NCBI GenBank assembly: GCA_965221695.1
Contig: OZ244905.1
Span: 3,104,001 to 3,168,000, forward strand
Direction: 5' to 3'
DNA from: Gammaproteobacteria bacterium
GTDB lineage: Bacteria; Pseudomonadota; Gammaproteobacteria; Eutrophobiales; Eutrophobiaceae
Length of the DNA stretch: 64,000 bases
A model generated the notes under the pieces. That model searched no databases. It saw nothing but the letters and a program-made list of their open reading frames with translations, and was not told the DNA's origin. Within the stretch, counting starts at the first letter, position 1, and every line of letters starts with the position of its first letter. The position numbers were made by a program, and so were the translations under genes. Positions 1-32,133 of the stretch are shown here, piece by piece.

Positions 1-1284
1 ACTATCCCGGTTGATGCTCGCGTACCAGCTACGGGCGTAGGCGGCCTCCTTGGCGCGGTACTCTTTGGTGGCCCTGAGCGGGCTCAACCCGCCTGCGCGT
101 TCCACCAGTTTCATTTTGTTGTCTTCGTAACGGTACATCGCATTGATGGAAAAACCGTAATCCGGCGCAACCAGGCTGTAGCAGGTATTGTGATACAACA
201 TCGGCCCCGGATCGCGATCGCGTAACAGCGACACGACCGCAAAACTGCATACCTTGGCCTGGCTGTTGGCGGAGGTCGCCGATTTCGGCATTCCACCGCT
301 CAGGCAACTGTCGCCGAGGATGTGGATATCCGGCGCCAGCGTCGATGCAAACGTTTGCAGGTCGACCGGACACCAGCCGCTCTCATCGGCAAGCCCGTGA
401 TCGACAGCCAACCGGCCTGCCTGCTGAAACGGGATGACGTTGGCCACATCCACCTTGAACTCACCTGCTTCGGCCTGCAGGCTCATGTGTTTGGGGTCCA
501 CGCCGATGACCAGGCCGCCCGCGGATATCGGGATATGTTCAATCATGCCGGGGTAAAGCGTCTCCCAGGCTTCCTCGAACAGGTCGTGCTTGGAGAACGT
601 TTCATTGGCATCCAGGATCAGTACTTTGGCGCGCGGGTTGTTGCGCTTGAGGTAATGGGCCACCAGGCTGGCGCGCTCGTAAGGGCCGGGCGGGCAGCGA
701 AACGGCGTGCCCGGGACCGCAATGGCAAATACGCCGCCGTCCCGCATCCCGGCCAGTTGTTTCCGCAACAGCTTGAGCTGGTCTGCTCCGTGCCAGGCGT
801 GAGGCATGCTCAAACTGGCTGCCTTGTCATAGCCGGCAAAGAATTCACTCCAAAGAAAACTGATCCCGGGCGAGATTACCAGCCGGCGGTAGGGCAGGGT
901 GGCGCCATCTGCAAGTGTGACGGTATGTTTTTCAGGATCAATCGCGCTTGCCCTGGCGTGGATGATGTTGACGCCGTACTGTTTCTCCAGGTTGCCATAC
1001 CCCAGGGAGATGGATGACATTTCCTGCAGGTCGCTGAGTACGGCGTTGCTGAACGGGCAGGTGAAATAGCGCGTATCGGCCTCGATCAGGGTCACGTCGA
1101 TATCCGGGTCCAGGTGGCGTATGTACCGGGCGCAGGTCGCGCCGCCATAACCGCCGCCAATGACGACGACCCGGGGCGCGCCCTTGCTGGGCGGGCGGGA
1201 GCAGGCGGGCAGTAATCCACCGCCGAGGGTTGCCGCGCTCGCCGTCAGGGTGTTGGCAAGAAAGTGGCGCCGGGTTAATGGCAT
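1..1284 (-). CDS. fccB: Flavocytochrome c sulfide dehydrogenase flavoprotein subunit (partial, runs off the left edge)
   Basis: Hand translation from ATG 1284: MPLTRRHFL (Tat motif), VVVIGGGYGGATCARY (FAD binding), CPFSN, RCPPGPYERASLVA, GWCPVD. No stop in the window, so absent from the ORF track. Confidence 0.88.
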   Translation of the reverse strand, partial: MPLTRRHFLANTLTASAATLGGGLLPACSRPPSKGAPRVVVIGGGYGGATCARYIRHLDPDIDVTLIEADTRYFTCPFSNAVLSDLQEMSSISLGYGNLEKQYGVNIIHARASAIDPEKHTVTLADGATLPYRRLVISPGISFLWSEFFAGYDKAASLSMPHAWHGADQLKLLRKQLAGMRDGGVFAIAVPGTPFRCPPGPYERASLVAHYLKRNNPRAKVLILDANETFSKHDLFEEAWETLYPGMIEHIPISAGGLVIGVDPKHMSLQAEAGEFKVDVANVIPFQQAGRLAVDHGLADESGWCPVDLQTFASTLAPDIHILGDSCLSGGMPKSATSANSQAKVCSFAVVSLLRDRDPGPMLYHNTCYSLVAPDYGFSINAMYRYEDNKMKLVERAGGLSPLRATKEYRAKEAAYARSWYASINRDS

Positions 1285-6041: not shown

Positions 6042-7883
6042 TTATGAACTGCCCTCGATAAACGTCCGCAACTGCTCGGAACGGCTAGGGTGGCGCAGTT
6101 TCCGCAACGCCTTGGCCTCTATCTGGCGGATACGTTCGCGGGTTACATCGAACTGTTTGCCCACCTCTTCCAGCGTGTGATCGGTATTCATCTCAATGCC
6201 GAAACGCATGCGCAACACCTTGGCCTCCCTGGATGTCAACCCGTTCAGCGATTCCCGCATGGTCTGCCGCAAACCCTCGAAACTGGCATATTCGGACGGC
6301 GCCTGGGTGTTCAGGTCTTCGATGAAGTCGCCCAGGTGGGAATCATCATCATCACCTATCGGTGTCTCCATGGAGATGGGTTCCTTCGCGATCTTCAGCA
6401 CCTTGCGTATCTTCTCTTCGGGCATGTCCATTTTTTCCGCCAGTTCCTCGGGCGTGGGCTCCCGGCCCTGCTCTTGCAGAATCTGTCGCGAGATGCGGTT
6501 CAGTTTATTGATGGTCTCGATCATGTGCACCGGAATACGGATGGTCCTGGCCTGATCCGCAATGGAACGGGTAATGGCCTGGCGGATCCACCAGGTTGCA
6601 TACGTGGAAAACTTGTACCCGCGCCGGTATTCGAACTTGTCCACCGCTTTCATGAGGCCGATATTGCCTTCTTGTATCAGGTCGAGAAACAGCAGCCCGC
6701 GATTGGTGTACTTTTTCGCAATGGAAATAACCAAGCGCAGGTTGGCCTCCACCATTTCCTTTTTTGCCTTGCCCATTTTTGCCTCTCCGATGGATATCTT
6801 CTTGTTGACTTCCTTGATTTCAGCAATGGAAAGCAGGTTGTCTTTCAGCGCTTCGACCAGTTTCTGCTGTATTTTGATCACCGCGTCGTTCACTTCCACC
6901 AGAGCTTTTGAATAGGTGGCGCCGGCATTAATCTGCTCCGTGATCCAAGCGGTATTTCTTTCGTTGTCGCGAAAAGAAGCGATAAAGTCTTTGCGGGGCA
7001 TATTTGCGGTCTTGACGCAAAGGCGCATAATCTCGCGTTCCGAACCCCGGATCAGTTCAAGCGCGCTCCGGACATTGGCGGTCAGGGCAGCAATAAATTT
7101 GGGCGCCAGGCGTATCCGTATGAATTTTTCCGTGATGTTGGTCTGAATGGCGGTTGTCTTATCGTGCTCTTTCCCATAACGTTTAATGGATGCCACCAGT
7201 TTCTTGTACAGTTTGTCAAGCTCGGTAATGGCCTTGCGCACTTCTCCCAGATCCACGCTGTCATCCGTGTCGGAATCACTGCCTTCGTCATCATCGCTTT
7301 TCCGGCTTGCTTGTTTCTTGGACTTGGGCGGCAAGCCGCCATCCGGGTACTCATCATGAACATTGAATCCGAGAATGACATCACTCAGTTTCAGTTCCCG
7401 ATTCTGAACACTATGGTATGCGTCCAGCAGCATATCGATGGTTCCGGGGTATAACGACAGCGCATACAGCGCCTGGTTCATGCCGCCTTCAATGCGTTTG
7501 GCAATCTTTATTTCTCCTTGGCGCGTGAGTAGGTCCACCGTGCCCATTTCCCGCATGTACATGCGCACCGGGTCCGTTGTCCTGCCAAATTCGTTTTCAA
7601 CATTGACCAGCGACGCATTTGCATCGTTTGATGAATCAGTATTGTTTGGGATTAATTGATCAAGATCCGGCGGGAATTCATGGACTTCGATTCCCATATC
7701 GGTGATCATGTTGATGATATCTTCTATCTGTTCCGGGTCTACAATCTCCTCCGGCAGGTGTTCAGTCACCTCATGATAAGTGATAAAGCCTTGTTCCTTT
7801 CCCTTTGCAATTAAAAGTTTTAATTGCGATTCATCATCATCGTGGTCCAGTTCGTGTTCTTCAAGCGTTTCAATTTCCGACAT
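6042..7883 (-). CDS. rpoD: RNA polymerase sigma factor RpoD
   Basis: Region 1.1, [44 protein letters not shown]. Confidence 0.98.
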
Positions 7884-7907
7884 AAGCGTAAGAATCCGGT
7901 TATTAAG

Positions 7908-7934
7908 GGAAACTCTGACTCAATCAGAGGTTCC
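7908..7934. repeat. 27-bp palindromic micro-element (IS5-like ends)
   Basis: GGAAACTCTGACTCAATCAGAGGTTCC, about 25 bp upstream of the rpoD start. Confidence 0.8.
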
Positions 7935-8018
7935 TTAGTAGAAAATTTACCTGCCAAACAAAAAAGTAACGAACCATCTGATTTAATCGCTGATGGGCCC
8001 GTTAAAACCAAAACCTCT

Positions 8019-8027
8019 ATTATAGCA
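8019..8027 (-). promoter_or_regulatory. Extended -10 promoter upstream of rpoD
   Basis: Minus strand reads TGCTATAAT (TGn-TATAAT) in the AT-rich dnaG-rpoD spacer. Confidence 0.55.
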
Positions 8028-8056
8028 TATAAAATTAAACAAGCCCTTAATTTAAG

Positions 8057-8207
8057 GGAAGCTCTGAACAAGTCCATCCTGGACTTGCCAGAGCGCGCAA
8101 AACAAAAATGCGATTTTTGTTTTGCTTACAAATTCAATGACTTATTGTCATTAAATTTGGCGACACATCCCTGTGCCGCAGTAACCTCTGACTTAATCAG
8201 AGGTTCC
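8057..8207. mobile_element. 151-bp MITE-like five-hairpin element, copy 1
   Basis: Ends GGAAGCTCTGAACAAG and CTTAATCAGAGGTTCC, flanked by TAAG on both sides; ungapped homologue at 25574..25724. Confidence 0.85.
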
Positions 8208-9959
8208 TAAGGTCTTATTTTTGTCATTTGAGTAATGCCGGCGCAGTTGCGTTTTGGCTTCCTCGGAAAGTTTGCTGGGGGGGGCGCGTGCGATGTCTCG
8301 GATGGACTGTCTGGCTTTGATTGCTTTCAGCTTTTCCACCCGGTCGACAAATTCACGCTCCAGGTCGAAAGTTTCGTCCTCCGGCAGGCTAGGAGCGGAG
8401 GCCAGTTCATTCAGGCGTGTTTCATAGCGGCCGCCGCGCCAGTGTTCCAGTATGCCGGCGCAGGTGATTTCCGGATTTGAGTGAATCAGTGAGACAAGCT
8501 CCCGTACAAAATCGGCGCCGGGGACGGCCAGGTCGGAAAGCTGTTCGGGATCTTCCACCAGCATCGCTAACCCCGGTTTATTCAGGATATACGCGATCAG
8601 GGCGCTGATATCGCCTGTTTTTTCCCGTTGCTGCGCAAGGCGGGGTTTGCCGCCGCGCCGCGCTGCGCCCGAGCGGTAATCCTGCAACAGTTTGAGTAAC
8701 CCGTCCATGTCGATTTGCGCTATCTCAGCAGCTTCTTGGAGCATTAACTGGCGCAGGCCGCTGCCGGGCATTTTGGCAAGGTGGGGCAAGATCATATCCA
8801 GGAATGTCGCTCTGTCTTCTCTTGTGGCAACCCCGGTCCTGGCTTGGATTGAAGCCAGCAGGAAATCGGATAAAGGCGCGGTTCTTTCTTCAGAACAGAA
8901 CTTTTCGGCTCCGTGTTGCCTGATAAAGCTGTCGGGATCGTGTCCCTCAGGCATGAAGTTGAATAAAGCCTGACGGCCCTCGCGTAACTGAGGGATCGCG
9001 ATCTCCAGGGCTCTCCACGCTGCTTTTTTGCCGGCTTCGTCGCCATCGAAACAAAAAATAAGCCGGCTGGTAACGCGGTACAATTTCTCCAGATGGCGCT
9101 CGGTAACAGCAGTCCCAAGGGTGGCTACTGTGTTTTTAATGCCGTGTTGGGCCAGCGCGACGACATCCATATAGCCTTCCACCACATACAGTGATTCCGG
9201 CTGTTTCCTGTTGTCGAGCGCCTGGTACAAGCCGTACAATTCACGACTCTTATGGAACAGGGGTGTTTCCGGGGAATTAAGATATTTTGGCGTATCCTCA
9301 CCTAGCACTCGCCCGCCGAAACCGATTACCCGCCCTCTTTGATCGCGGATCGGGAACATAATGCGGTCGCGAAAGCGGTCGTAATAACCTTCGTTGGAGC
9401 CGCGTGCGATCAGTCCTGCTTCAAGCAGACGAGCCTTAGCCCCGTCGGACCCGCCCAGAGCATTCAAGAGTCGTTGCCATCCCGGCGGAGCATAGCCGAT
9501 CTCATAATCCTCTATGACTGCGCCGCTGATGCCGCGCGCCTTCAGGTAGTCCGCGGCTCTGCCTTTGTCCTCTTGCAACTGCTTTCGGTAGAGCCGCGTG
9601 GCCTGTTGCAGCAACTCATACAACTCGTCGTGCGACCTTGTCGCGGGTAGGTAGCCCGCCTCGCGCGGGATTTCCAGGCTATAGCGCCCGGCAAGTTCTT
9701 CGATGGCCTCGACAAAACCCAGCCTGTTAAACTCCATGACAAAGCCGATTACGGTGCCGCTGGCGCCGCAACCAAAACAGTGGTAGAACTGCTTGTCCTG
9801 GCTTACCGTAAATGAGGGTGTTTTCTCCTCATGAAACGGGCACAGGGCCTGGTGGTTTTTACCGGCCTTGCGCAACGGGACATAGCTGTCTATGACCTCG
9901 ACGATATCGGCCCGGGCGAGTAAGTCATCGATGAAAGCTTGTGGTATTTTGCCCGCCAT
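8193..9959 (-). CDS. dnaG: DNA primase
   Basis: CPFHEEKTPSF zinc finger, KYLNSPET, VVEGYMDV, DGDEAG, DPD; probable start MAGKIPQ at 9959. Confidence 0.97.
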   Translation of the reverse strand: MAGKIPQAFIDDLLARADIVEVIDSYVPLRKAGKNHQALCPFHEEKTPSFTVSQDKQFYHCFGCGASGTVIGFVMEFNRLGFVEAIEELAGRYSLEIPREAGYLPATRSHDELYELLQQATRLYRKQLQEDKGRAADYLKARGISGAVIEDYEIGYAPPGWQRLLNALGGSDGAKARLLEAGLIARGSNEGYYDRFRDRIMFPIRDQRGRVIGFGGRVLGEDTPKYLNSPETPLFHKSRELYGLYQALDNRKQPESLYVVEGYMDVVALAQHGIKNTVATLGTAVTERHLEKLYRVTSRLIFCFDGDEAGKKAAWRALEIAIPQLREGRQALFNFMPEGHDPDSFIRQHGAEKFCSEERTAPLSDFLLASIQARTGVATREDRATFLDMILPHLAKMPGSGLRQLMLQEAAEIAQIDMDGLLKLLQDYRSGAARRGGKPRLAQQREKTGDISALIAYILNKPGLAMLVEDPEQLSDLAVPGADFVRELVSLIHSNPEITCAGILEHWRGGRYETRLNELASAPSLPEDETFDLEREFVDRVEKLKAIKARQSIRDIARAPPSKLSEEAKTQLRRHYSNDKNKTLGTSD

Positions 9960-10062
9960 CGTTTTCACCCGAGTTATAACGTGTGAGAAGAGACAGCCCC
10001 ACTGGCGTCGGCCCTTCGGGCGGGATGACGTCAGGATTGTCTGATGGCTGTGCCAGGATATA

Positions 10063-10512
10063 CTACGGACTCAGCCGGGCTTTTACCACCGCGCTGACCT
10101 GGCCCATATCCGCGCGCCCTTGCAATGCAGGCTTCAATTGCCCCATGACCTTGCCCATATCTTTCATGTTGGCGGCGCCGGTAGCTGCAATAATCTCATC
10201 AATCCTGTCATTGATTTCCGCGGCGTCCAAGGGTCGGGGCAGATATCCCTGGATAATATCGAGTTCGAACTGTTCTTTTTCAACCAGGTCCACGCGACCC
10301 GCAGCAGTATATTGTTCGATGGAATCCCGATGCTGTTTTGCCATTTTATTCAGCACAGCGACAACCTGAGCGTCATTGAGGCTGATGCGTTCATCCACCT
10401 CACGTTGTTTCACGGCCGCGGTGACAAGTCTTAATGCGGCCAGGCGCTGCTTTTCCTTGCTGCGCATCGCAGTCTTGACGTCTTCGTTGATCCGGTGTTT
10501 GAGATCGCTCAT
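10063..10512 (-). CDS. GatB/YqeY domain protein
   Basis: LKHRINEDVKTAMRSK, KDMGKVMG; usual position between rpsU and dnaG. Confidence 0.9.
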   Translation of the reverse strand: MSDLKHRINEDVKTAMRSKEKQRLAALRLVTAAVKQREVDERISLNDAQVVAVLNKMAKQHRDSIEQYTAAGRVDLVEKEQFELDIIQGYLPRPLDAAEINDRIDEIIAATGAANMKDMGKVMGQLKPALQGRADMGQVSAVVKARLSP

Positions 10513-10539
10513 GGGAAGGCAGGCAAGCAGGAGTGACGC

Positions 10540-10755
10540 TCAGTACTTTCTGAACTGGCGCGGACCCATTCTCCCCTGGCGTTTCTGGTGGCGTTTTACC
10601 GCTGCGGCAGCTTTTCTTTTTCTCATTTGCGTGGGTTTTTCATAAAATTCACGCCGGTGGACTTCAGCGAGAACTCCGGCTTTTTCACAAGCGCGCTTGA
10701 AGCGGCGCAATGCGAAATCAAACGGCTCGTTTTCTCTTACTTTGACACTAGGCAT
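10540..10755 (-). CDS. rpsU: 30S ribosomal protein S21
   Basis: [29 protein letters not shown]. Confidence 0.97.
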
Positions 10756-10910
10756 AGAGTAAGTTGATCCTGTTGGTTGTTGGAATACTCCGAATCAAAA
10801 TAACCGGAAAATCCCTTGTTGCAAGGAACCAAACATACTACCAGATACTGCGCAAAATACCAAAGTATTCTTTCGCTTGCGGTAGAATATGGCAAACAGT
10901 GAGTAATTGA

Positions 10911-11921
10911 ATGCGCATCCTTGGAATAGAAACCTCATGTGACGAGACCGGAGTTGCTATCTACGATTCCGACCAGGGTCTATTGGCAAACCAGCTTCAC
11001 AGTCAGGCCCGCCTGCACGACGCTTATGGTGGCGTAGTGCCCGAGTTGGCGTCCCGCGACCATGTCCGGCGTATAACGCCGCTGTTGGCTGCGGCTATGC
11101 AGGAAGCCGGCCTGGATTCGGGAGACATTGATGGGGTTGCTTACACCGCAGGTCCCGGATTGATTGGAGCATTGCTGGTCGGGGCCAGCGTCGGCAGAAG
11201 CCTGGCCTATGCCTGGCGCGTGCCTGCGCTGGCAGTGCATCATATGGAAGCGCATCTGCTGGCAGTGAATCTCGAAGCAGATCGTCCTGACTATCCGTTT
11301 TTAGCGCTGCTGGTCTCAGGAGGGCATACCCAACTATTGGAGGTCAGAGCGGTAGGAGATTACACATTACTAGGAGAATCTCTGGACGACGCGGCGGGCG
11401 AAGCCTTCGACAAAACGGCAAAATTGCTTGGGTTGGGTTACCCGGGCGGTCCGCAAGTGTCGGCGCTGGCCGCGCGCGGGCGCGCCGGCAGGCACACTTT
11501 CCCGCGCCCCATGACCGACAGGCCGGGTCTGGATTTCAGTTTCAGCGGCTTGAAAACAGCCGTGGCGCTGGTTGCCGGAGAACTGGAAGACGGCGATGTA
11601 CAGGCGCGCGCCGATATTGCCCGCGCCTTTGTGGATGCGGTCGTGGATACCCTCACGATAAAATGCAAGCGCGCCATGAACCAGACCGGCATCAACAAGC
11701 TGGTGGCGGCCGGCGGAGTCAGCGCCAACAGCCAACTCAGGGAGAAATTGAAGACAATGGCTGATGAGATGGGCGGACGAATCTACTATCCGCGACCGGA
11801 ATTCTGCACCGACAACGGCGCCATGATCGCTTATACGGGATATGTCAAACTGAGCGCCGGCGCAAGCGAACCACTGGCATTTGCCGCTTATCCACGCTGG
11901 CCGGTATTTTCAGCGCCTTAA
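10911..11921 (+). CDS. tsaD: tRNA N6-adenosine threonylcarbamoyltransferase
   Basis: [40 protein letters not shown]. Confidence 0.97.
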
Positions 11922-12503
11922 CCTGATCCTGTTTTCTGTGCCGTTTAACAGTTGTTTTAGGTTGGACCGATGCCGCCAGACCAGCATCACGGACATCAGG
12001 CTTACCCCCGCGAGATAAGGCCAGGGAGTTATCAGCAACCAGCAAAACAGGGGCGTTAGTAGAGCAACGGCGATTGCCGCCAGGGAGGCATACCTGAATA
12101 GCAGCGCGACCAGCAACCAGCCAAGCACGAACGCCGTGCCCAACAGCCAATGGAAGCCAAGCAGGACTCCAATTAACGTTGCCACCCCTTTGCCGCCGCG
12201 AAAACCAAAAAACAGCGGATACAAATGTCCGCTGAATGCGGCCAGACCGGCTGCGACGACGAACACATCGGGCGCCTGGACATAACGCAATATCAGGACG
12301 GGAAGCAGCCCTTTCAACAAATCGCCGCTGAGAGTGAGCAGCGCGGCAGTTTTGCCGTACAGGCGCAGCACGTTGGTGGCGCCGGGGTTGCCGGAGCCTT
12401 GTTCTCTGGGGTCGCCGAGCCCCAGGGTTTTGCAAACTATCACGGCGCTGGCAAGAGAACCTGCCAGGTAGGCAAGGATTACCAGGGCAATGTGAGTGAA
12501 CAT
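11910..12503 (-). CDS. plsY: Glycerol-3-phosphate acyltransferase
   Basis: [30 protein letters not shown]; probable start MFTHIAL at 12503. Confidence 0.95.
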
Positions 12504-19458: not shown

Positions 19459-19539
19459 CGTCCCCTCATGCAACAGCAAACGCCGCCCCGACAAATACCC
19501 CGCGGTCTGCCGGAACAACGCCTCCGTTAATCGATGTTG
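19459..19539 (-). pseudogene. IS5-family transposase fragment (27 codons)
   Basis: Hand translation QHRLTEALFRQTAGYLSGRRLLLHEGT resembles the IS5-subgroup segment just before the GTIVDAT catalytic motif (recognition from memory). Confidence 0.55.
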
Positions 19540-25398: not shown

Positions 25399-25440
25399 GT
25401 TATATTGGGTGATTTGCTGCATGTCGGAATGCGACAATTT

Positions 25441-25483
25441 TGGCGGAGAGGAGGAAGATTCGAACCCTCGATACGCTATTAAC
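25441..25483 (-). pseudogene. tRNA-Ser 3' fragment (att-site remnant)
   Basis: Reverse complement GTTAATAGCGTATCGAGGGTTCGAATCTTCCTCCTCTCCGCCA: part of the variable arm, T-arm and GCCA end; no 5' half. Confidence 0.75.
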
Positions 25484-25573: not shown

Positions 25574-25724
25574 GGAAACTCTGAACAAGTCCATCCTGGA
25601 CTTGTCAGAATACGGAAAACAAAAATGCGATTTTTGTTTTCCTCACAATATCAATGCCTTACAGTCATTGATATTGACGATACATCCCTGTATCGTAGGA
25701 ACCTCTGACTTAATCAGAGGTTCC
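25574..25724. mobile_element. 151-bp MITE-like five-hairpin element, copy 2
   Basis: GGAAACTCTGAACAAG...CTTAATCAGAGGTTCC with TTAA on both flanks; colinear with 8057..8207. Confidence 0.87.
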
Positions 25725-31990: not shown

Positions 31991-32133
31991 CTAACGCCGC
32001 CACCGTACCACTCCCGCCCTCCGCTCAACGCCATACGGGGTCAGGCTGAAAAGCGGGAGTTCAGTGGAATACGATGTCGCCCGGAGCGGATTTGGACATC
32101 CGATGGATGCCCGCAAGGATAGGGCGCATCAAA

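Follow-up and report, generated by a model that had tools for sequence, protein, structure and literature searches.

Background

The Correia elements (NEMIS) of Neisseria and the ERIC sequences of the enterobacteria are abundant MITE-like repeats of about 100-150 bp that are found near genes. They are co-transcribed with their neighbours, fold as RNA, and alter the processing or the stability of the mRNAs. Their fold is formed chiefly by the pairing of long inverted repeats, and the effects known for them involve RNase III or RNase E and not CsrA sites. Bacterial MITEs are also known more generally to alter mRNA stability, and the transposable elements of eukaryotes are known to spread the binding sites of regulators. 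In the literature searched, no MITE was found to be described as a carrier of binding sites of a global RNA-binding regulator. For CsrA, the SELEX consensus is RUACARGGAUGU, in which ACA and GGA are invariant and the GGA is exposed in a hairpin loop (PMC4347634). A further consensus, (A/U)CANGGANG(U/A), has been derived from RsmE (PMC6849547).

Here, we describe a 151-bp element that is present in two copies in the window, by which we mean the whole stretch of 64,000 nucleotides that was analysed (Table 1). The element is almost certainly an IS5-group MITE. Judged by its sequence and its modelled folds, it is a real MITE with hairpins that are very probably competent to bind CsrA.

Table 1. 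Positions in the window of the two copies of the element, their parts, and the neighbouring features. Model positions are those of the 151-bp element.
Feature	Position	Strand	Basis or remark
rpoD (sigma-70), downstream of copy 1, same strand	6042..7883	-	
27-bp mini form, both inverted repeats joined, like hairpin 5 alone	7908..7934	.	
Left target-site duplication of copy 1, TAAG	8053..8056	.	sequence; family-wide flank count
Copy 1, 151-bp MITE, subfamily B type	8057..8207	- (GGA-bearing strand)	alignment, folding
Hairpin 1, model 5-38, GGA in minus-strand loop	8061..8094	-	plus strand: TCC at 8077-8079
Hairpin 2, model 41-69, A/T-run stem, 13 pairs	8097..8125	-	
Hairpin 3, model 73-103, freely covarying stem, variable loop	8129..8159	-	
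Hairpin 4, model 104-123, minus strand ACA-N-GGA-N-GU	8160..8179	-	plus strand: TCC at 8168-8170
Hairpin 5, model 125-151, terminal palindrome including right inverted repeat	8181..8207	-	
Stop codon of dnaG	8193-8195	-	15 nt inside the element
dnaG (DNA primase), last codons and stop codon supplied by the element	8193..9968	-	
Right copy of the target-site duplication of copy 1	8208-8211		
Copy 2, young subfamily A type, divergent intergenic region	25574..25724	-	
Flanks of copy 2, TTAA	25570-25573 and 25725-25728		

Copies, ends, and target sites

The two copies in the window can be aligned without gaps and differ at 22 of the 151 positions, as counted on the alignment. The element is non-coding and does not contain a transposase of its own. 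A preliminary description of this DNA had proposed a MITE with IS5-like ends and YTAR targets, and had suggested collecting all genomic copies by BLASTN. In the 3.54-Mb genome, this search resulted in 91 matches with a length of 120 bp or more, and a profile search with nhmmer gave 200 hits, 87 of them at full length. Partial, short, or long forms are about as numerous as the full copies. The short form of 80-85 bp consists of hairpin 1 and hairpins 4 and 5 and was found 12 times (counted as pairs of hits), the long form of 222 bp is represented by six hits, and many further nhmmer hits are single ends. In addition, 117 mini palindromes of about 27 bp, built from two terminal repeats and a loop of 5 nt, are located outside the nhmmer hits, and one such mini form sits between rpoD and copy 1. 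The mini palindromes are flanked by TTAA- or TTAG-like sites, and may represent either minimal mobile forms or products of excision or deletion.

The terminal inverted repeats are about 11 bp long: 15 of the 20 terminal bases agree between the two ends, and the first 11 are nearly identical. Identical 4-bp flanks were found at 64 of the 87 full copies, and in 49 of these the flanks are of the YTAR type (TTAA in 33, CTAA in seven, TTAG in seven, and CTAG in two cases). Among the remaining 23 full copies, 17 match at three of the four flank bases. The inverted ends and the duplicated flanks therefore bear out the proposed MITE with its IS5-like ends and YTAR targets.

A match to a repeat family described before, which had been named as a refutation of the proposal, was found neither in Rfam nor in the papers searched. 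At the gathering score, Rfam recognises just two tRNAs in the window and nothing in the element, and a search of the element with E-values up to 10 did not give a meaningful match either, the nearest hint being a 17-nt match of hairpin 4 to RsmV with an E-value of 0.25. The element was not matched in the plasmid collection, and its end sequences were not found in any paper of the literature searched.

Two further observations concern the parts and the surroundings of the copies. An IHF site in hairpin 3 was considered and rejected: WATCAANNNNTTR, which we take to be the IHF consensus, fits 59 of the 87 copies of this genome and is rare elsewhere (for example, 0 of 10 copies in G039 and 0 of 9 in G018). 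Beside copy 2, the minus strand of the window at about 25440-25480 resembles the 3' half of a tRNA. Going by the sequence, this stretch may be the remnant of an integration site; a tRNA was not called there by Rfam.

Distribution and the search for a partner transposase

Of the 22 other genomes of the genus that were searched, 17 contain the element. Outside the genus, it occurs in a second genus of this family and, in the wider class, in three further families with one genome each. In the genome studied here (G000), a young subfamily comprises 53 copies, 12 of which are identical to its consensus, and an older subfamily comprises 27 copies. The copies of a related genome, G008, are 99% identical to copy 2. 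Between the same two genomes, the 5' end of rpoD is 85% identical and the 3' end of dnaG 78%. With the element at 99% and rpoD at 85% identity, the family would therefore seem to spread in bursts, probably including transfer between species. The same sequence comparison suggests a recent transfer of the element, or of the IS that mobilises it, between this genome and G008.

The genome also contains a second, unrelated MITE of 319 bp with inverted repeats of about 20 bp, of which at least nine copies are present. A full copy is found, for example, at G000:C1:2083208-2083526, and a partial copy at 32078-32113 of the window. The interior of this MITE has GGA in hairpin loops on one strand only, and 48 nt are common to it and to a 71-nt insert that distinguishes the long form of the 151-bp element.

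An intact IS5-type transposase was not found in this genome, which contains one truncated DUF772 frame, and matches to PF01609 (DDE_Tnp_1) and PF13586 (DDE_Tnp_1_2) were not found. PF01609 was not found in G008 either, which is also rich in copies. The repeats of at least 500 bp in this genome were rejected as partners; they include elements of the IS3 and IS21 types, which have ends unlike those of the MITE. The search for a partner covered 30 transposase loci, inspected out of more than 300 matches in 41 genomes. In G022, another species of the genus, a 1150-bp IS5-family element is flanked by CTAA and TTAA, and its product scores 321.9 bits on the NCBIfam model of the IS5 family transposase (cut-off 140). 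The ends of this element agree with those of the MITE at 15 of 20 bases, and the two have nothing else in common. The MITE itself was not found in G022. A relic of 26 residues at 19459-19536 of the window (minus strand), with 81% identity to the transposase of G022, is the only trace of that transposase in the genome studied here.

The dnaG-rpoD locus

Copy 1 had been described as lying in the sense strand of dnaG-rpoD. This is correct, as dnaG and rpoD are both minus-strand genes and are thus read in the same sense as the GGA-bearing strand of copy 1. The copy is absent at this site from all 22 other genomes of the genus, and the insertion is recent and specific to this lineage. The region of copy 1 with its flanks (7850-8350 of the window) was found to be free of promoter-like sites, and the flanks contain only two weak terminator-like hairpins. 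In the mini form, a terminator-like hairpin is called on the minus strand.

In a search for RNA evidence, this stretch turned up in contigs of four sequencing runs, none of which is listed as RNA. A contig of one run (X1) spans 7073-12053 without any differences and thus contains copy 1; this run is possibly the source sample itself. The contigs of three further runs (X2-X4) break at the repeat. None of the contigs of X1-X4 contains a clean empty site for copy 1, and they therefore do not carry information on mobility. In G020, the spacer between dnaG and rpoD (G020:C1:100410-101780) has a length of 1370 bp and contains a match to a DDE_Tnp_1 transposase. A different mobile element has therefore inserted into this spacer in an independent event.

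Folding and covariation of the stems

Each of the two copies folds into five abutting hairpins, as had been noticed before from the letters of the sequence. The minus strand of copy 1 reaches -76.5 kcal/mol (z -11.1), which was not equalled by any of 200 shuffled sequences, and the minus strand of copy 2 reaches -73.5 kcal/mol (z -10.5). The plus strand of copy 1 also folds into five abutting hairpins, at -65.1 kcal/mol (z -8.8). On this strand, the stems contain a C.A mismatch in hairpin 3 and an A.C mismatch in hairpin 4. As already pointed out in the preliminary description, both mismatches become G.U pairs on the minus strand, which is the reason why that strand folds better by 11.4 kcal/mol. 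The stem differences between the copies that had been listed as keeping the pairing were all found, and all of them pair. They are compensated at the model pairs 42-68, 76-100, 77-99, 104-123, and 108-119, to which the pair 5-38 has to be added, resulting in six compensated pairs in all.

The compensation is not restricted to these two copies. The five-hairpin structure was scored on an alignment of 122-123 distinct copies from 19 genomes, read on the GGA strand. Pairing is retained in 95.3% of the pairing cells compared to 89.3% in shuffles, and 31 of the 60 pairs have changed on both sides compared to 16.2 in shuffles. The cells changed on both sides number 394 compared to 118.9 in shuffles, although such cell counts overstate the independent events because the copies are related. 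Any of five covariation measures was reached by none of 500 shuffles, and sliding the 3' partner by one to three columns reduces the pairing to 33-44%. RNAalifold, applied to the same alignment, recovers part of the structure, with double changes in 21 of its 31 pairs. In addition, the consensus sequences of the subfamilies differ at 17 positions, 12 of which constitute six fully compensated pairs. The covariation of the stems, which had been noted on two copies, thus extends beyond both the shuffled and the slid controls. In the lineages that yield new copies, the five local hairpins have persisted while many of their pairs underwent compensated changes.

The covariation demonstrates that the hairpins are maintained, but alone it is no proof of a role at the RNA level. 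When replication switches templates within a DNA palindrome, compensated changes can result without the need for any function of the RNA. In hairpin 4, covariation is free in the lower stem and almost absent from the two pairs next to the loop. A frozen upper and a free lower stem is the pattern that is expected from a sequence-specific recognition of the upper stem.

Conservation of the GGA loops

On the minus strand, hairpin 1 of both copies presents CAGGAUG. Hairpin 4 of copy 2 presents AUACAGGGAUGU, which is a perfect match to RUACARGGAUGU, and hairpin 4 of copy 1 is one base off this consensus. The GGA triplets reported earlier for two minus-strand loops are therefore present, and their conservation, which had been proposed as a check, was followed over 169 distinct copies from 18 genomes. 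The corresponding TCC of the plus strand is retained by 163 of the copies in the hairpin 1 loop and by 166 in the hairpin 4 loop. These triplets are the best conserved unpaired columns of the element (0.94-1.00, compared to 0.43-0.96 for the other loop columns, with all genomes weighted equally). Both hairpins carry the GGA in 140 of the 169 copies, with a spacing of 91 nt.

The minus strand of hairpin 4 starts with A (163 copies), C (165), and A (169), followed by a variable position (G in 90, A in 64, and U in 14 copies), and continues with G (168), G (168), A (168), a second variable position (U in 144, C in 15, A in 6, and G in 4 copies), G (169), and U (164). This sequence, ACA-N-GGA-N-GU, corresponds to the RsmE consensus (A/U)CANGGANG(U/A) in 155 of the 169 minus strands and in none of the plus strands. 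The longer RUACARGGAUGU is matched perfectly by 117 minus strands and not by any plus strand. Thus, the variation in this 10-mer is confined to the two N positions of the CsrA/RsmE consensus. Hairpin 1 reads CC-N-GGA-Y-GG on the minus strand and shows the same pattern of variation. In the entire genome, RUACARGGAUGU has 103 matches where 1.3 are expected from the composition, and 98 of these are located within hits of the element. The insert of the long form folds into three hairpins, two of which have a GGA loop on the same strand, so that the 222-nt form presents four GGA loops in total. Part of this insert is common to the 319-bp MITE, and there the GGA loops are again found on one strand only.

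Given that the variation is limited to the N positions, chance is an unlikely explanation, and we are confident that the GGA motif is kept by selection. The loops of hairpins 1 and 4 each qualify, by sequence and predicted structure, as a predicted high-affinity CsrA site. Binding of CsrA to the minus-strand RNA in vitro can accordingly be predicted as the likely outcome of an experiment.

csrA and Csr small RNAs

The presence of csrA had been suggested as a further check. The genome encodes a single, canonical csrA gene, which scores 90 bits on PF02599, and residues 1-57 of its 91-aa product align with solved CsrA/RsmA chains at an E-value of about 1e-26. The gene is located downstream of an aspartokinase-like gene, named from reading its translation. 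Among the 41 relatives searched, csrA was found in 38, in carriers of the element and in non-carriers alike, and is so nearly universal that its presence is uninformative. In five of the 22 genomes of the genus, csrA is present and the element is not. A partial copy of the element (model positions 1-83; G000:C1:1649604-1649687) lies about 350 nt downstream of csrA, which itself is encoded at 1650034-1650189 on the minus strand. This partial copy places the UCC strand in the sense direction of csrA.

Small RNAs of the Csr system were not detected with the Rfam models. The CsrB model has no match in the genome, the best RsmZ match has an E-value of 0.99 and is below the threshold, and the best RsmY match has an E-value of 0.016 and 20 bits at a cut-off of 57. 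This blank is a weak one because the Rfam models of the Csr small RNAs are lineage-specific. A search for regions with a high density of ANGGA resulted in eight windows, of which the five inspected look coding; three are repeat-protein genes.

Strand preference and gene context

The RNA of the minus strand folds better than that of the plus strand in 141 of the 169 copies, by 3.7 kcal/mol on average. For the overall consensus, the difference between the strands is just 1.0 kcal/mol. Among the stem cells, A:C combinations, which are G.U pairs on the minus strand, outnumber G:T combinations by 221 to 116. However, wobble changes that are private to single copies do not show a strand bias (15 versus 18). 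The strand asymmetry therefore goes back to the source copies, and signs of selection on the inserted copies are not seen. The two CATCC motifs of the plus strand are in direct orientation and located 19 and 34 nt from the ends. With this orientation and these unequal distances, they fit poorly to transposase sites on two inverted ends. Taken together, the sequence pattern and the modelled folding energies suggest that it is the fold of the GGA strand that matters.

To place the insertions with respect to genes we used our own crude gene calls, which are based on ORFs and comprise 2461 genes covering 83% of the genome. In intergenic regions between co-directional genes, the GGA strand of full copies is sense in 12 and antisense in 28 cases. 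Considering all forms that keep a GGA hairpin, the numbers are 33 and 60 (p 0.0067). Just past the 3' ends of genes, the GGA strand is sense 14 times and antisense 15 times. Within 60 nt upstream of called starts the numbers are 10 and 19, at sites where start calls are unreliable because the stop codons of the element itself define the starts of the ORFs. A bias with respect to the direction of replication was considered and rejected, as the two orientations are even (44 versus 43). The GGA motifs are intact in 11 of the 12 sense and in 26 of the 28 antisense copies.

The preliminary description had proposed that the element is selected for delivering CsrA sites to transcripts. The data do not support this proposal. 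The orientation with the GGA strand in sense is the rarer one in both counts, and the motif stays intact irrespective of the orientation. Moreover, the 22 other genomes of the genus all lack the dnaG-rpoD copy at its site, and copy 1 with its flanks does not offer a promoter-like site. The depletion of GGA-sense insertions can be understood in two ways. Either such insertions are costly because they are seen by CsrA, or they are costly for another reason, for example because they contain a weak terminator. According to the predicted fold, hairpin 1 together with its U-rich tail would be the candidate for such a terminator.

Discussion

Leaving aside whether the binding is relevant in the cell, we lean towards the following explanation as a whole. 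The element is almost certainly a non-autonomous transposon of the IS5 group that inserts at YTAR with a 4-bp duplication. Its interior is a chain of five local hairpins, with one strand carrying two canonical predicted CsrA sites in hairpins 1 and 4. When an insertion is transcribed in the GGA-sense direction, as should be the case in dnaG-rpoD, the RNA would most likely be bound by a CsrA dimer of the host. With about 100 sites per genome, the family could bring neighbouring genes under Csr control and could soak up CsrA. The GGA hairpins would be a selected property of the element lineage and not an adaptation of each insertion, because the copies are young, are not conserved at their sites, and are found in both orientations. 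That the binding of CsrA matters in the cell is a view that we hold only tentatively, and we would put it somewhat below the balance of probability.

The strongest competitor is a plain MITE, in which the hairpins and the loop motifs serve only the DNA element and the similarity to CsrA sites is inconsequential. The palindromes would persist because of template-switch correction or because transposition requires them, and the bases of CATCC/GGATG would be read on DNA or single-stranded DNA by the transposase or a host factor, or would simply be inherited. Several observations speak for it. The inverted repeats and target duplications are clear, the copies are young and unconserved at their sites, GGA sense is not favoured in the orientation counts, and private mutations are without strand bias. 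In addition, the 12 short forms keep precisely the end modules, hairpin 1 and hairpins 4 and 5, as would be expected if the ends are required for transposition. However, it is hard to reconcile a plain MITE with CATCC motifs that are direct and at unequal distances from the ends, and with variation that falls exactly at the N positions of the CsrA/RsmE consensus. The same loop triplet is found on one strand only in unrelated modules and even in a second MITE family, and the GGA strand is the one that folds better as RNA in most copies. We regard the plain MITE as less probable than an element with selected CsrA-binding hairpins.

A more far-reaching version of the favoured explanation would see the element as a mobile carrier, whose GGA-sense insertions put the neighbouring genes under Csr control and whose roughly 100 copies act as a dispersed CsrA sponge. 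We consider this version improbable. The sponge might even feed back on the spread of the element, if the mRNA of the IS5-type transposase were itself held down by CsrA.

It is also conceivable that the family has been domesticated by the host, either as a dispersed CsrA sponge or for the wiring of a Csr regulon, and replaces small RNAs of the CsrB/RsmY/RsmZ type. Such a replacement would fit to the about 100 perfect consensus sites that are nearly all located within the element, to the canonical csrA, to the lack of CsrB, RsmZ, and RsmY matches above the cut-offs in the genome, and to the ANGGA-dense windows, of which those inspected are only coding. But the missing matches count little with lineage-specific Rfam models, the orientation bias is opposite to the one expected (33 versus 60), and the insertions are not conserved between species. 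Copy 1 with its flanks has no promoter-like site, just two weak terminator-like hairpins lie in the flanks, and five of the 22 genomes of the genus have csrA and do without the element. We consider a domestication very improbable.

Least of all do we expect that the other strand is the functional one, with its UCC loops (CAUCCUG and ACAUCCYUGU) pairing with GGA-rich targets, for example Shine-Dalgarno regions or antisense copies, or with a role as a 3' stabiliser or terminator: the UCC strand is indeed the commoner sense strand in co-directional contexts (60 versus 33), and the terminator-like hairpin on the minus strand of the mini form could explain a selection against GGA sense, but both the G.U pairs and the predicted stabilities speak for the GGA strand, it is on this strand that the conserved 10-mer corresponds to a known protein site, and we know of no factor that reads UCC loops.

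Returning to the element with selected CsrA-binding hairpins, the restriction of the variation to the N positions of the consensus yields a clear-cut prediction for bench work. If CsrA binds, transposition could, in a single burst, redraw a post-transcriptional regulon and alter how much CsrA is free, and the evolution of Csr networks would become directly testable. If CsrA does not bind, the element would be an unusually clean case of compensatory evolution in a DNA repeat, and a warning against taking covariation in palindromic repeats as proof of RNA function.

Comparison with known systems

With the Correia and ERIC repeats, the element shares that it is abundant, MITE-like, and found near genes. 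Its target sites differ from those of the Correia and ERIC repeats, and conservation of the IHF-like site in hairpin 3 does not extend beyond this genome. The REP and BIME sequences are similar in that they are intergenic hairpins with hundreds of copies, often right behind stop codons. However, REPs depend on RAYT (Y1) transposases for their movement and lack both the terminal inverted repeats and the target duplications that the element has.

The row of short hairpins with GGA loops resembles CsrB, RsmY, and RsmZ, fits RUACARGGAUGU and (A/U)CANGGANG(U/A), and is extended to four GGA loops in the 222-nt form. Unlike these small RNAs, the element is not a gene of its own, and copy 1 with its flanks is without a promoter-like site. 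It is mobile, is present in about 100 copies in both orientations, does not match any Rfam model at the gathering score, and has just two sites per 151-nt unit, which are 91 nt apart.

The closest relatives are the IS5-derived MITEs. Like them, the element is short and non-coding, has inverted ends and 4-bp YTAR duplications, and is present in many copies. A partner transposase was not found in this genome; the full IS5-family element of a related genome agrees with the ends of the MITE at 15 of 20 bases. The interior is not a deleted IS, only the ends are in common, and it differs from that of the IS5-derived MITEs in consisting of five separate local hairpins instead of one long hairpin and in having, in two of its loops, a predicted protein-binding RNA motif on one strand.
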